A stretch of DNA of 64,000 bases from NCBI GenBank assembly GCA_004552445.1, contig SFOJ01000004.1:7802-71801 (forward strand), in the 5' to 3' direction. This DNA comes from Mollicutes bacterium. GTDB taxonomy: Bacteria > Bacillota_I > Bacilli_A > RF39 > UBA660. Under the pieces are notes generated by a model. The model did no database searches. It had not been told where the DNA came from and saw only the letters and a program-made list of their open reading frames with translations. Positions 1 through 4,731 of this stretch are shown here, in pieces (positions within the stretch are counted from its first letter, which is position 1; every line of letters starts with the position of its first letter). Position numbers and translations under genes: made by a program.

Positions 1-388
1 CTCCTATTATATCAGAAATTTCCTCTAAACATTCAACCATATTAGAATATGCATTATCATAATATGGTATTTTCTCTTTTAAAAGAATTTGTTTATTAAA
101 CATTTCCACCACTGACTCTTCTTCATACATGTATTTAATAAAAACATCTTCATCATAGTAACTGATTGAACGTGCATGTAATAATTCATGTAAGATTTCT
201 TGCTCTAAAGTATTATTACTTATTCTTATATCACAACTCCATAACTTTCCAGCATTTTCATTATTTACTATTGAAATATTTTTGCTCCACTTACTTTTCT
301 TATTTGTATATTTTGATAAAGTTTTATTCATTTTATTTGCTAAATCTTTTATTTCATTATCGGTCATATATCTTCTATTATTGTCCAT
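1..388 (-). CDS. HExxH-motif protein (putative metallopeptidase), N-terminal part only; continues past the window start
   Basis: Own minus-strand translation from ATG 388-386: MDNNRRYMTDNEIKDLANKMNK...LEQEILHELLHARSISYY...; open to base 1, so absent from the ORF track; HELLH encoded at 176-190. Confidence 0.5.
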   Translation of the reverse strand, partial: MDNNRRYMTDNEIKDLANKMNKTLSKYTNKKSKWSKNISIVNNENAGKLWSCDIRISNNTLEQEILHELLHARSISYYDEDVFIKYMYEEESVVEMFNKQILLKEKIPYYDNAYSNMVECLEEISDIIG

Positions 389-402
389 TTGATAACTAGG
401 AA

Positions 403-792
403 TTATTGATTTAATATTTTCATTTTCAGTTTTGTTTTTTCTCCATAATTTGTATAGCTTTTACAATCAAGTGTTACATGTAATTCGTAGTTATCAATTG
501 TATTAATTAAGTTTTCCCAATATAAAGAATATGATACATTTTTTGTTCCAATATTTTTAACTGTTATAACTTTAGAAATTATGTCTCCTGGAACTGCATT
601 TTCAAATTTTAATTCTGTTTCATCTTTATATTCAAGTCTTAAGTCTCCTGTAGACATAACTATATCTTTTCCAGTTCCCTCTATTTGTAAACTAAAGAAT
701 GCATATGTATAACTAAAAATACTTAATAAGATTAGAGTTATGAATGATACTAAAAGTGTCTTTATTATATTATTTCTTTTCATATCCTTCAC
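403..792 (-). CDS. small secreted protein with TasA/camelysin-type (SipW-class) signal and N-terminal module
   Basis: TM anchor, then YTYAFFSLQIEGTGKDIVMSTGDLRLEY (AxFxS ... TGxL pattern of TasA/CalY N-termini); AGGTGAAGG SD before the ATG; paralogous to the N-terminus of 8958-10436. Confidence 0.6.
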   Translation of the reverse strand: MKDMKRNNIIKTLLVSFITLILLSIFSYTYAFFSLQIEGTGKDIVMSTGDLRLEYKDETELKFENAVPGDIISKVITVKNIGTKNVSYSLYWENLINTIDNYELHVTLDCKSYTNYGEKTKLKMKILNQ

Positions 793-840
793 CTACTATT
801 AAATGGTATACAATAATTTTTTTCAAATAAAAAGAGCTAA

Positions 841-1410
841 TTATACAAACATTGGCTCTTTTTCGAATTTTTTTTCTTCTTTGTATTCATATTCATTTAA
901 TAGAGTTATTTTTCCAGAAGATAGTGTTTTTGGTATATCTATTAATCTTTGATTAGAAGATCCTCTAAATAGAAGATTTAAATCTTTTTGTTCCAAAATA
1001 AATTTGCCATCTACTAGTACATCTATATAATGAATAAATTTATCATATGCTGGATTTTTCTTTGACATTTCCATTAATTCTTCAAATGTAAATCCAGTAT
1101 ATACCCATATATTTAGTCCTAAATTTTTGGCATATGCAGCTATTTTGGCACATTGTTCTGGTTGAAACATTGGATCTCCACCACTAAAAGTTATCCCTGT
1201 ATGATATTTAAGCTCACTTATTGCTTCACATACCATATCTACTGGAACAAGCCCTCCACCATTAAAATCATGTGTACCTGGATTTTGACATCCTTTGCAG
1301 TTATGTGAACACCCCTGAGTCCACACTACTGCTCTTAGACCTGGACCATCTACTATTGAATCAGTGGTAAGGTCTGCTGCTAAACGGATATAATCGCTAT
1401 TTTGTTGCAT
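841..1410 (-). CDS. nrdG: anaerobic ribonucleotide reductase activating protein (radical SAM)
   Basis: VWTQGCSHNCKGCQNP cluster motif, size, position directly after nrdD. Confidence 0.9.
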   Translation of the reverse strand: MQQNSDYIRLAADLTTDSIVDGPGLRAVVWTQGCSHNCKGCQNPGTHDFNGGGLVPVDMVCEAISELKYHTGITFSGGDPMFQPEQCAKIAAYAKNLGLNIWVYTGFTFEELMEMSKKNPAYDKFIHYIDVLVDGKFILEQKDLNLLFRGSSNQRLIDIPKTLSSGKITLLNEYEYKEEKKFEKEPMFV

Positions 1411-1555
1411 GAGTTACTCTATCGTTAACTTCTGCTTTTTTTGCATTGTTAAATCTGTCTAATGTTCCTACTAGGTATCCAGTAATTCTTCTAATTCTTT
1501 CGAATCCTACTCCTTCTCCTACAGTTTTTTTACTTTTTTTAATTTCCTTATCCAT
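1397..1555 (-). CDS. 52-aa free-standing glycyl-radical peptide (C-terminal NrdD module)
   Basis: Own translation MDKEIKKSKKTVGEGVGFERIRRITGYLVGTLDRFNNAKKAEVNDRVTHATK; RxxGY radical loop; AAAGGAAAGGAA SD upstream; too short for the ORF track; 3' end overlaps the nrdG ATG. Confidence 0.7.
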   Translation of the reverse strand: MDKEIKKSKKTVGEGVGFERIRRITGYLVGTLDRFNNAKKAEVNDRVTHATK

Positions 1556-1580
1556 AATATTTTATTCCTTTCCTTTTAAT

Positions 1581-3314
1581 TTATTTTGTAAAGCTTGAAC
1601 AGCTTCCATAACAATCTAAGCATGAAATTTTTTCCATTTCAATACCTTCGTTTTCATGTCTTCCACATCCTGGGCAAACATCTTTAATAACTCCAACATA
1701 TCCACAAACTGGATCTCTATCTACTGGGTGGTTAATAGCTCCATAACCAACTCCTGTATCATGCATTATTCTAACTACTGTTTCAAATGCATCTACATTA
1801 TTTACTGTATCTCCATCAAGTTCTATATAAGAAATATGTCCTGCATTTGTAAGTGAGTGATATTTCCCTTCAACTTCTAATTTGTGTTGAACTGATGTTT
1901 TATAATAAACTGGTACATGGAATGAATTGGTATAGTAATCTCTATCAGTAACTCCTTTAATTTTTCCATATATTGATCTATCTATAGCAACGAATCTTCC
2001 TGAAAGCCCTTCTGCTGGTGTAGCTAAGCAAGTAAAGTTTAGATTGTATTCTTCAGTATATTCATCACATTTCTTTCTCATATGACCTATTATTTCAAGT
2101 CCAAGTTTTTGTGCTTTTTCACTTTCTCCATGATGTTCACCAATAAGAGCTTTTAGTGTTTCAGCAAGTCCTATAAATCCTATTGAAAGTGTACCGTGTT
2201 TAAGTACTGTTCTAAGTTTAGTGGTACTATCCATTTTTTCACTATTTAACCATACACCAGAACCTAATAAGAATTTAAAGTTTGCTCTTGATTTTGAACA
2301 TTGACATTCAAATCTTTGAAGTAATTGTCCTTTAACTAAGTCCATTGTTTCATCTAATTCTTTATAAAATGCTTTCATATCAGCTTTATCACGTTCGCCA
2401 AGTGCAATACCATGTTTAATACCTAATCTTGGTAAGTTGATTGATGTAAAACTTAAATTTCCACGTCCTGGTGTAACTGATGGTCCACATACATTTGCTA
2501 ATACTCTTGTCCTGCATCCCATATATCCTACTTCTGTGTTATAGTCACCTTCTACATAATATTTTTTATTATAAGGTGCATCTATAAATGAGAAATTTGG
2601 GAATAATCTTTTAGCAGATACTCTGCATGCTAATCTAAATAAGTCATAGTTTTTATCTTCTTTGAAGTAGTTTATCCCTTCTTTAACTTTGAATATTGAA
2701 ATTGGGAATATTGGTGTTTCTCCATGACCTAAACCTGATTCAGTAGCAAGCAAATAGTTTTTAATAACCATTCTTCCTTCTGGACTTGTATCAGTACCAA
2801 AATTAATTGAACTAAATGGAACTTGAGCTCCAGCTCTACTATGCATTGTATTTAAATTATGAATAAATGCCTCCATAGCTTGGTATGTTGCTCTATCAGT
2901 TCTCTTCATTGCATTTTCATATGCACTTTCAAATATTTCTTTTAATCTAGTACTTTTAGAAGTAAATTCATCGAATAATTCTAAATCAATTTCTATACTA
3001 TCTAATTTATCTATAATATCTGTTACTTTATTAAAGTTAATTAGTTCTTTGAATCCCTCAAATTCTAAATAGTTATATATAGCTTGTTTAAATTCTTTTT
3101 TAAATGTTTTTAAAACTCCTGGTGCCATATAGTAATCAAATGCTGGAATACTTTGTCCACCATGTTGTTCATTTTGATTAGCTTGGATTGCAATAGCAGC
3201 AAGAGCTGAATAGCTTCCAATACTATTTGGTGTTCTTAAATATCCATGTCCTGTTGAAAAACCATTTTTAAATAATTTATTTAAGTCAATTTGCATACAA
3301 GTAGTTGTACCCAT
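1581..3314 (-). CDS. nrdD: anaerobic ribonucleoside-triphosphate reductase, catalytic core (no ATP cone, no Gly-radical tail)
   Basis: GTTTCMQIDL, QNEQHGGQS, zinc ribbon CPGCG-x14-CLDC at the end; reading frame stays open upstream of the annotated Met through IIHDLDFW. Confidence 0.85.
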   Translation of the reverse strand: MGTTTCMQIDLNKLFKNGFSTGHGYLRTPNSIGSYSALAAIAIQANQNEQHGGQSIPAFDYYMAPGVLKTFKKEFKQAIYNYLEFEGFKELINFNKVTDIIDKLDSIEIDLELFDEFTSKSTRLKEIFESAYENAMKRTDRATYQAMEAFIHNLNTMHSRAGAQVPFSSINFGTDTSPEGRMVIKNYLLATESGLGHGETPIFPISIFKVKEGINYFKEDKNYDLFRLACRVSAKRLFPNFSFIDAPYNKKYYVEGDYNTEVGYMGCRTRVLANVCGPSVTPGRGNLSFTSINLPRLGIKHGIALGERDKADMKAFYKELDETMDLVKGQLLQRFECQCSKSRANFKFLLGSGVWLNSEKMDSTTKLRTVLKHGTLSIGFIGLAETLKALIGEHHGESEKAQKLGLEIIGHMRKKCDEYTEEYNLNFTCLATPAEGLSGRFVAIDRSIYGKIKGVTDRDYYTNSFHVPVYYKTSVQHKLEVEGKYHSLTNAGHISYIELDGDTVNNVDAFETVVRIMHDTGVGYGAINHPVDRDPVCGYVGVIKDVCPGCGRHENEGIEMEKISCLDCYGSCSSFTK

Positions 3315-3325
3315 TGCCCAGAAAT

Positions 3326-3811
3326 CTAAATCATGTATAATTCTCTTGAAACTGTTGATCCAAAGTGAAGCATAGTTCCCATTGGTCCATCACCATCAAC
3401 ATTAGCATTTTCACGTTTGGCATTTTCTTCTCCAGCAGATTTAAGTCCTAGAGATTCAATAGCTTTTACAAACTTATGTTGTTGTTTAACTACAAATGCC
3501 TCTCTTGATGCATCTCTTCGTTCTCTATAGTTTTTAAATGAATCATAGACCTCGTTATATTTAAGTTTCTTTAGAACTTCTTCTATAACATCAGATACAT
3601 CTTCTACTCCGATAGTTTTTCTATCTTTATACTCTTTTCTAATTTGATCTAAAACTTTTTCTTTAACTTTATAGACGTTTTTTTCATCGTATTCTTCATA
3701 TACGCTATCAAAACCTTTCTTAACAGCTAAAGCTATTTTAGCATCATTAAAACTAACCCTCTGACCGCTTCTTTTGACAACAACAATGTCATCTAAAAAA
3801 TCCTTTTCCAT
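3326..3811 (-). CDS. nrdD: NrdD N-terminal fragment (ATP cone plus linker), separated from the core by a frame change
   Basis: VVKRSGQRVSFNDAKI ATP-cone start; ENANVDGDGPMGTMLHFGSTVS matches the NrdD ENANKD region; stops at TAG 12 nt before the core Met. Confidence 0.75.
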   Translation of the reverse strand: MEKDFLDDIVVVKRSGQRVSFNDAKIALAVKKGFDSVYEEYDEKNVYKVKEKVLDQIRKEYKDRKTIGVEDVSDVIEEVLKKLKYNEVYDSFKNYRERRDASREAFVVKQQHKFVKAIESLGLKSAGEENAKRENANVDGDGPMGTMLHFGSTVSRELYMI

Positions 3812-4038
3812 TAACTACCTCACCTTCACCGTTATATTTTTTATAACCATCTTAAGGATATCAAAATTCTATTTTTTTGTAAATGTTTTTTTTATAAAAA
3901 AATTAAAAAAATAAAATAGTTTACATTTTTAAAATTTTATTTTTTTAGGGTAAAAAAACATTATGCCTTTATTTACCTGACATAGATACTATTTCATAAT
4001 ATTTGTTCGCTTTACATATCATTAATTAGGTGGTTCTG

Positions 4039-4731
4039 ATGTTTGAAAAAATTAAAAATTTTATTAAAAATATTATGATTTTTACTACTAGTTATAGTCT
4101 TAATGTATTTGAGGATCCTCTTTCTAATGATGAAGAAGAATATTATATTAAAAAGCATTTAGAAGGAGATAAAGAAGCTCGTGCTAAGTTAATTATTCAT
4201 AATTTAAGATTAGTTGCCCATATAGTTAAAAAGTACGAAACTAAAGGAACTAGTGCTGATGATCTTATTAGCATAGGTACTATTGGGTTAATCAAAGGAA
4301 TCGATTCTTATAGTCCTAATAAAGGTGTTAAATTAACTACATATGCTGCTAAGTGTGCCGAAAACGAAATACTTATGTTCTTTCGTAGTAATAAAAAATA
4401 TAATAATAATATTAGTCTTAATGATGTAATTGCTCATGATAAAGATGGAGGGGATATAACACTTATAGATGTACTTGAAGAGCATACTGAAAGTTTAGAT
4501 AAAATAACTGAATATAAAGACAATATTAGAAACTTATCTAAATATTTAAATGTACTTAGTACTCGTGAACTTGAGATTATTAAAATGCGATATGGTCTTT
4601 TAAATACAAATCAAAAAACACAAAAAGAAATAGCTAAAAAATTACATATTTCAAGAAGTTATGTTTCAAGAATAGAAAAAAGAGCACTTATAAAAATGCT
4701 CCGTGAATTTATTCGTAATAATAATATTTAA
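4039..4731 (+). CDS. sigK: sporulation sigma factor, pro-sigma-K-like
   Basis: HNLRLVAHIVKKY, DLISIGTIGLIKGIDSY, ISRSYVSRIEKRAL closely follow B. subtilis SigK; AGGTGG SD 5 nt before ATG 4039 (the track's GTG 4030 lies inside the SD). Confidence 0.75.
   Translation: MFEKIKNFIKNIMIFTTSYSLNVFEDPLSNDEEEYYIKKHLEGDKEARAKLIIHNLRLVAHIVKKYETKGTSADDLISIGTIGLIKGIDSYSPNKGVKLTTYAAKCAENEILMFFRSNKKYNNNISLNDVIAHDKDGGDITLIDVLEEHTESLDKITEYKDNIRNLSKYLNVLSTRELEIIKMRYGLLNTNQKTQKEIAKKLHISRSYVSRIEKRALIKMLREFIRNNNI

Follow-up and report, generated by a model that had tools for sequence, protein, structure and literature searches.

Glycyl-radical enzymes are thought to carry the radical on their own C-terminus. From where, then, would a class III (anaerobic) ribonucleotide reductase (RNR) obtain its radical if nrdD, the gene for its catalytic subunit, ends before the glycyl-radical loop? 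The question is raised by a locus in a 64,000-nucleotide stretch of contig SFOJ01000004.1 (positions 7,802 to 71,801; assembly GCA_004552445.1) of a gut Mollicutes bacterium, hereafter the window. At this locus the loop is found in a small gene of its own, lying between the nrdD core and nrdG, the gene for the activase. A reading of the window from its letters alone (the sequence-only reading) had proposed a gene fission yielding a detachable radical-bearing peptide, conceptually like GrcA/YfiD, the spare part of pyruvate formate-lyase (PFL). From a comparison of related loci, we judge it probable that the split genes specify a two-polypeptide class III RNR with a trans-acting radical peptide.

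Four collinear open reading frames (ORFs), of 161, 577, 52 and 189 amino acid residues, make up the locus, all on the minus strand. The 161-residue ORF (3326–3811) encodes an N-terminal NrdD fragment, consisting of the ATP-cone domain and linker (Pfam ATP-cone, 4e-11; NF005497 positions 4–139). The 577-residue ORF (1581–3314) is the nrdD core and ends ...CPGCGRHENEGIEMEKISCLDCYGSCSSFTK-TAA. Its segment 1659–3314 encodes the catalytic core up to the second half of the zinc site (Pfam NRDD, PF13597, 3.9e-165; NF005497, 1.1e-254). The remaining codons, 1584–1658, encode a tail, HENEGIEMEKISCLDCYGSCSSFTK, which is outside the NrdD profile beyond core residue 558 and sits in the place of the glycyl-radical loop. 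The TAA stop of the core (1581–1583) is followed by a 25-nt spacer (1556–1580) with a Shine-Dalgarno (SD)-like AAAGGAAAGGAA and then by the stand-alone peptide gene of 52 residues (1397–1555). The peptide has an RRITGY loop, with the codon of the radical Gly26 at 1478–1480, and it matches the last ~32 positions of NrdD models. The fourth ORF (841–1410) is nrdG, encoding the radical S-adenosylmethionine activase (TIGR02491 NrdG, 1.7e-42; 144.9 bits against a cutoff of 126.1). The nrdG ATG is inside the last codons of the peptide gene, and this 14-nt overlap suggests that translation of the two genes may be coupled.

On the 746 positions of NF005497, core residues 3–558 correspond to 169–715 and peptide residues 16–51 to 710–745. 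Together with the 4–139 match of the first ORF, the coverage is that of one NrdD with two interruptions, and the shortened 577-residue ORF scores 847 bits against a cutoff of 764. From the end of the core to the peptide ATG, each of the three frames contains a stop codon, and the peptide is encoded in another frame than the core. The ORFs and coordinates of the sequence-only reading, that is, the core, the spacer, the 52-codon ORF and the nrdG overlap, were all found again, as were the closure of the spacer in all frames and its SD-like site. Of the hallmarks of class III RNR, the barrel family match and the NrdG encoded alongside are thus present; the RxxGY loop is absent from the barrel polypeptide, which stops 25 residues past CPGCGR.

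The first of the two interruptions is specific to the window. Conspecific assemblies encode one 763-residue ATP-cone and NrdD protein upstream of the small ORF. In the window, a 61-nt deletion frameshifts nrdD to give the 161- and 577-residue ORFs. DNA alignment with two conspecific loci (L001 and L006; L numbers denote loci of the survey described below) puts the deletion at 3330–3345 on the minus strand, with the junction at about 3338, and tblastn likewise gives 3338. The deletion takes out FAKAYLMDTKYSRAHDEGAIH, and with it the first His of HxHD, the triphosphate-binding motif. The 161-residue fragment is 99% identical to residues 1–159 of the intact conspecific protein, and the 577-residue product is found on a single contig only. 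Since the deletion is unique to one contig, we regard the 577-residue ORF as a damaged or mis-assembled copy of the 763-residue protein, the deletion being either a strain-specific inactivation or an assembly artefact. The 577-residue core described earlier therefore exists as an ORF, and its C-terminal end is correct, but the natural length of the protein is 763 residues.

The second interruption, at the C-terminal end, recurs widely. The DNA across it is identical to that of the window in five independent metagenome assemblies, and the exact 52-residue peptide is present on 771 contigs (1163 blocks of the collection searched). The split is therefore not a read error, in accord with the fission originally proposed. 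The 90%-identity cluster of the peptide has 87 members, nearly all of 50–52 residues. In a protein search with the peptide, the best 120 matches are all 48–75 residues long; phmmer against 50%-identity representatives gives 2043 matches at E<1e-3, of which the best 150 are nearly all 54–124 residues long. The peptide consists of a variable, Lys-rich N-terminus followed by the conserved VGEGVGFERIRRITGYLVGTLDRFNNAKKAEVNDRVTH. Members of the family begin with Met, have a brief variable stretch next and then read [VI]GEGVGFERIRRITGYLVGT[LV]DRFNNAK[KR]AE..DRV[KT]H, and 20 columns are invariant among 30 diverse homologues. None of the best family matches contains the zinc ribbon except a chimeric fragment, P0310. 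Given the Met start and the variable stretch in place of a zinc ribbon, the family members are not fragments cut off at contig edges. The peptide thus has the GrcA-like property of being a small stand-alone protein with an RxxGY loop, encoded apart from a full-length enzyme. Neither Pfam nor NCBIfam has a dedicated model for it; at E≤0.1 it has no match to Pfam Gly_radical (PF01228) and matches only the C-terminus of NRDD (PF13597). BLASTP of the peptide against an E. coli GrcA sequence not taken from a database record gave no alignment.

A scan of one genome per species for related loci returned at least 600 matching stretches, and the best 80 loci were analysed. The loop motif was found in 79 of these, which were classed by script and to which the counts of split and unsplit loci refer. 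The sequence-only reading had allowed that relatives might have one continuous ORF; in fact, 68 of these 79 species-level loci keep the stop, SD and ATG arrangement, and 11 are unsplit. The best 80 loci span Bacilli, Clostridia, Fibrobacter, Desulfovibrio/Bilophila, Muribaculaceae and Proteobacteria, and the carriers include strain- or isolate-titled records (L010, L084) as well as metagenome-assembled genomes (MAGs). In complete split loci the core is 757–852 residues long (two others are truncated, at 421 and 464 residues). Split cores end with CP[RGK]CGR and an 18–55-residue tail without a Gly loop, and the tails in 62 split loci begin GE.[VI]..E.[LI]. The closest unsplit relatives read CPKCGRKEGEGDVGFERIRRITGYL at the junction.

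The spacing and signals of the split loci bear directly on how the peptide is made. The spacer ranges from -1 to 298 nt, with a median of 25, and in only 17 of 62 loci is the peptide in the frame of the core. An SD-like site precedes every one of 69 peptide genes, 67 of which start with ATG. The encoded peptides have 47–78 residues, of which the variable N-terminus accounts for 8–40. In 53 of the split loci nrdG was located, and in 44 of these its start falls between -35 and +15 nt relative to the peptide stop. The rarely shared frame, the range of spacer lengths and the ubiquitous SD-like site indicate that each cistron is likely to initiate independently, without recoding. As judged from these sequence features, the layout is that of an ordinary, separately initiated cistron, and it excludes read-through, frameshifting and bypass as a general mechanism. 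When the long spacers and the window were scanned for promoters and terminators, the number of sites did not exceed that in shuffled sequence.

Where, then, has the enzyme been cut? The core of the window contains the β-A Cys (TTTC) and the finger-loop motif YMGCRTR, with CPGCGR at 1659–1676. In all 60 full-length split cores and all 11 unsplit ones, the NxN flap (NAN), HxHD (HIHD), the β-A Cys TTTC and YMGCRTR are invariant; the radical Gly loop is present in none of the split cores. MGCR, which has Met and only one Cys, is the signature of formate-dependent NrdD (PMC9669993), the type to which we therefore assign the split enzyme. In an alignment with P. copri NrdD (8P23), the match of the core ends at CPKCGSHH (residue 706) and the peptide covers residues 708–739, which puts the split between residues 706 and 708. 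In P. copri NrdD, the glycyl-radical domain, residues 676–739, comprises the zinc site, the buried Gly711 loop, a short helix (723–730) and an extended tail, and it is highly mobile; Tyr712 bonds Glu581 near the substrate, and Arg719 binds the NxN flap (PMC11226230). The corresponding residues of the peptide, G26 for Gly711, Y27 for Tyr712 and R34 for Arg719, are all invariant. By this alignment, the cut is inside the predicted glycyl-radical domain: the zinc site stays with the core, and the loop is on the peptide.

The same alignment requires a revision of the zinc site. The sequence-only reading had described a complete zinc ribbon, CPGC-x14-CLDC. The canonical ligands of 8P23, CLDCGY...CPKCG, align instead with DPVCGY...CPGCG of the window, which places the CLDC of the window outside the canonical site. 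CLDC is part of the lineage-specific tail, where relatives read NCGC, CYDCC, CDC or CCK or have no Cys, so the ribbon as first described is not conserved. Three of the four canonical zinc-site Cys (DPVCGY...CPxC) occur in all 71 split and unsplit cores compared. The invariant His and Asp in NHPVDRDP (window 1659–1719, minus strand) are candidates for the fourth ligand.

At least two Cys are found in 33 of 62 core tails and none in 23 of 62. Many tails (loci L006–L085) end in Cys clusters, such as CGC, CC, CDC or CxxC, and some peptide C-termini and unsplit NrdD C-termini likewise end in CxC or CC. Given the formate-type MGCR motif, a redox-shuttle role for these clusters is not obviously needed.

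Are the two pieces maintained? Values of dN/dS were taken from 568 locus pairs with 0.2<dS<2. The median for the conserved 38-codon block of the peptide is 0.10, and a value of 0.15 is obtained for the 200 codons of the core that precede the zinc site. For the core tail, dN/dS is 0.02–0.24 in closely related pairs. The small ORF, whose conservation had been named as a point on which the fission proposal could fail, is thus under strong purifying selection. Together with the invariant motifs, this selection makes the split cores look like working catalytic subunits minus the radical site. Within clades the tails, too, are held by purifying selection, and they probably serve some function themselves; a tail could be a docking partner for the peptide, a placeholder in the loop channel or, where Cys-rich, a metal or redox site. 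Existing annotation takes such cores for complete enzymes. In a profile search with 33 diverse cores, the best 120 matches are near-identical 777-residue variants of one species; the commonest, P0325, a split core from "Firmicutes bacterium", is on 171 contigs and is annotated at its source as an ordinary anaerobic ribonucleoside triphosphate reductase, despite having no radical Gly loop.

The junction sequences hold a clue to the origin of the split, since the junction is present twice. Split cores read CPRCGRREGEG[VI]..E[KR][LI]..., and peptides read.VGEGVGFERI.... In the window, the tail segment EGIEMEKI..Y resembles the peptide start EGVGFERI..GY, and a shuffle test of the tail against its own peptide gives p=0.01. 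Of 62 loci put to the same test of tail against own-locus peptide, 28 fall below p=0.01 and 40 below p=0.05, counts that are not independent because the loci are related. In L013 and L035, the tail can be aligned with the peptide from end to end, and the G(Y) of the loop and E..D+V.H are still present in it. At the loop position, the L013 tail has GY and the L035 tail GL, and the tails of L046 and L070 are also peptide-like. A hidden Markov model of the peptides gives weak scores against the core tails, with 26% above the 99th percentile of shuffles, a less clear outcome than that of the pairwise test. The doubled junction and the likeness of tails to their own peptides suggest that the fission most likely arose through a tandem duplication of the nrdD 3′ end. 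Of the two copies, the upstream one would have degenerated to the core tail, and the downstream one would have acquired an SD and an ATG.

The peptide gene is also found by itself, in prophages and on viral contigs. Five genome loci (L024, L026, L055, L057 and L061) have it with neither an NrdD core nor nrdG within 4 kb. In Bilophila (L055:3884–4219), the next gene encodes a terminase large subunit (phrog_15, 3e-139), and in Desulfovibrio falkowii (L057:3878–4177) the preceding gene encodes a RusA resolvase. A scan of IMG/VR gave at least 600 matching stretches, the best 80 of which were analysed as viral loci (L086–L165). In 78 of these 80, a small stand-alone ORF is present with no core in the flanks; RRVTGY variants are counted here, as are a few loci close to the end of a contig. 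Core and peptide occur together in the other two, one of which, L093, on a 167-kb contig, also has nrdG; L095 and L105 have the peptide and nrdG without a core. RtcB, DNA ligase, helicase and PAPS reductase are encoded among the viral neighbours. PHROGs has no family for the peptide, which matches only the last ~32 positions of full-length NrdD families there, and tblastn against GenBank phages gave only 8 matches, on unannotated contigs from human faecal samples. The Desulfovibrio orphans have the N-terminus MLM[KE]S.L[FY], as do the chromosomal peptides of L011, L023 and L047. This N-terminus, common to orphans and chromosomal peptides of the Desulfovibrio lineage, suggests that phages may have captured the orphan genes from their hosts. 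Because the orphan genes are kept without a linked core, the peptide would seem able to act in trans on a host core; orphan copies are what a trans-acting cofactor would predict.

We propose the following scheme for the split enzyme. The large subunit, of 763 residues when intact, would contribute the ATP-cone, the barrel, the thiyl-radical finger loop, the zinc site and a non-catalytic tail, and would have no radical Gly. The 52-residue peptide, co-translated with NrdG, would supply the rest of the glycyl-radical domain, namely the buried RRITG*Y loop (the asterisk marks the radical Gly), a short helix and the C-terminal tail. NrdG, with S-adenosylmethionine, would take the Cα hydrogen from Gly26, and the loop would take the position that it has in one-piece enzymes, within the barrel and adjacent to the Cys of the finger loop. 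From Gly the radical would then pass to Cys and on to substrate, and catalysis would proceed as in one-piece, formate-dependent NrdD. Since a glycyl radical is lost to oxygen by cleavage of the chain at the Gly, only a 6-kDa peptide, and not an 88-kDa enzyme, would have to be replaced after damage, and the split would also give the activase a freely accessible substrate. Cheap replacement and accessibility are the likely advantages. The PFL activase accepts a peptide of seven residues, RVSGYAV, and O2 cleaves E. coli NrdD at the radical Gly. From these precedents, together with that of GrcA and the mobility of the glycyl-radical domain, we infer the steps of the scheme.

Several points weigh against this two-polypeptide enzyme. 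In the window itself the large subunit is broken by the 61-nt deletion, the system there being either inactivated or mis-assembled. The ratio of 68 split loci in 79 is biased toward the split type, as the loci are the best matches, out of at least 600, to split-type peptides. In a neighbour-joining tree of the cores, whose split forms are 52–98% identical, split and unsplit forms interleave on short basal branches and do not separate into two groups. Production of the peptide, radical formation on it and its docking into the core are predictions. A free peptide of 6 kDa might not keep a glycyl radical stable, so that activation may need a pre-formed complex. The comparison covered loci and their flanks, and the same genomes may also hold a one-piece NrdD or other RNR classes.

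Other explanations have to be set against the same data. The peptide might be an accessory: a sacrificial or spare part of a one-piece NrdD whose gene lies elsewhere, or else a decoy or regulator by which NrdG is titrated. Phages would use it on the host's deoxynucleotide supply, and the truncated core would be inactive or in another role. Orphan copies far from any core do show use apart from a linked core, the GrcA precedent is one of a back-up and not of an obligate subunit, and a survey confined to loci is compatible with a second intact nrdD elsewhere in these genomes. Yet the peptide gene lies directly between a Gly-less core and nrdG in 62 chromosomal loci, and the invariant catalytic motifs and the core dN/dS of 0.15 are hard to explain if the core never receives a radical. 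Moreover, the peptide keeps the Tyr and Arg that contact core and flap in P. copri NrdD, which fits docking rather than mere NrdG titration. We therefore hold an accessory role to be unlikely. Production of a single fused NrdD, by recoding (read-through, frameshifting or bypass) or by protein splicing, would suit the collinearity of the adjacent ORFs with the one-piece protein and the short, A-rich spacer of the window. It is made very improbable by the stops in all three frames, by the varied spacers, frames and start signals enumerated above, which conserve neither a take-off or landing sequence nor a spacer length, and by the orphan copies that have no core to be fused to. A split intein was considered and rejected, the tail and the peptide N-terminus, both variable in sequence, having no intein motifs.

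The explanation to which we give least credence is that of a decaying pseudogene, or a sequencing or assembly artefact, with the small ORF as a relic. The frameshifting deletion in the window, with part of HxHD gone, is what such decay would look like, and the window copy may indeed be dead or mis-assembled. That deletion is unique to one contig, whereas the C-terminal split is the same in independent assemblies with an intact 763-residue core, is kept in 68 species loci across the full range of core identities, and is accompanied by purifying selection on peptide, core and tail alike. As an account of the C-terminal split, decay or artefact is thus largely refuted. Weighed together, these arguments favour the two-polypeptide reductase. 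The detachable, GrcA-like peptide first suggested for the window is in this way supported on genomic and evolutionary grounds, by the prevalence of split loci, the dN/dS of the peptide, the conserved Gly-less cores and the orphans.

It is tempting to go a step further. The NrdD-type Gly-loop peptide may be a portable, exchangeable radical cofactor, activated by NrdG off the enzyme, loaded into any compatible core and replaced after oxygen damage. Temperate and lytic phages of gut anaerobes would carry it, sometimes with nrdG, to keep host deoxynucleotide synthesis going, or to restore it, while they infect. We offer this broader proposal tentatively, as a serious possibility about which we are more doubtful than convinced. 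If it holds, class III RNR would be the first enzyme of the glycyl-radical type whose radical subunit is obligately separate, and it would have converged on the logic of class I RNR, in which the radical is stored on a separate subunit. How the activase gains access to a loop buried in the barrel is a long-standing question; with the loop on a free 6-kDa peptide, the NrdG substrate, the docking step and the oxygen-repair cycle would become separable for experiment. The spare-part idea would be extended from PFL to ribonucleotide reduction, an essential pathway. The orphans further indicate a phage auxiliary gene that has been overlooked and is frequent on the viral contigs of the scan.

The surroundings of the locus can be described briefly. 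Upstream of nrdD and divergent from it is a gene for a sigma-70 family factor with regions 2 and 4 (4030–4731, plus strand). The genes after nrdG (window 1–840, minus strand) differ among otherwise identical assemblies: an N_methyl/Beta_helix protein of 565 residues is encoded in L001–L003, there are three small ORFs in L004, and in the window a 129-residue ORF with a hydrophobic N-terminus follows. The region downstream of nrdG looks like a variable region. The window has 26% G+C, and its nearest named relatives are "Bacilli/Mollicutes bacterium" MAGs.

How does the split enzyme compare with systems already described? The sequence-only reading was aware of no such description for NrdD, and our literature search found none of a split NrdD, an nrdD fission or a separately encoded glycyl-radical domain; a review of June 2026 likewise names formate lyases as the only class of glycyl-radical enzymes with spare-part proteins. 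The oversight may stem from the size of the peptide, as a large RNR phylogeny dropped sequences of <400 residues (PMC9531940). Surveys and annotation pipelines that do so miss the peptide and label Gly-less cores as ordinary NrdD.

The closest likeness is to GrcA/YfiD of E. coli, which restores O2-cleaved PFL in trans (PMC8683613, PMC13450708), and to Y06I (vs.6) of phage T4. These too are small stand-alone Gly-loop proteins, and in both cases there are phage versions. By analogy, the cognate radical-SAM activase would presumably introduce the radical into the NrdD peptide, which would then serve the large subunit in trans. The likeness is not one of descent: GrcA has 127 residues against 47–78 for the peptide, which matches PF13597 and not PF01228. 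GrcA serves a formate lyase, whereas the partner of the peptide is an RNR. In addition, GrcA is a back-up for an enzyme that has its own loop until O2 cleaves it, whereas here the linked core has no loop and the peptide would be obligate. A different association of small polypeptides with a glycyl-radical enzyme is that of the BSS β and γ subunits of the X-succinate synthases, which are reported to bind the enzyme and influence its glycyl-radical domain (PMC12590467). Unlike the peptide, they are FeS proteins without a radical Gly, and they are unrelated to it in sequence.

Two-gene RNRs are also known in other classes. The nrdA gene of phage Aeh1 is split by a homing endonuclease. Class II NrdJa/NrdJb of Pseudomonas aeruginosa is reported to be encoded by two genes (PMC4520616). 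In these systems, as in the split NrdD, a catalytic subunit comes from two adjacent genes whose products must assemble. They differ in class and split point; they are divided into large domains, and what is set apart is not the element that stores the radical. We know of no phage-borne orphan piece of either NrdJa/NrdJb or Aeh1 nrdA.

One-piece class III RNRs, such as those of T4, E. coli, P. copri (8P23) and S. thermophilus, have the same ATP-cone, barrel, NxN, HxHD and β-A Cys as the split enzyme. They also have the same MGCR finger loop and RxxGY loop, an adjacent nrdG and a zinc site in which the split enzyme has three of the four canonical Cys. Relative to them, the split core has gained a tail of 18–55 residues that is under selection, and the loop has gained an SD, an ATG and a variable N-terminus.

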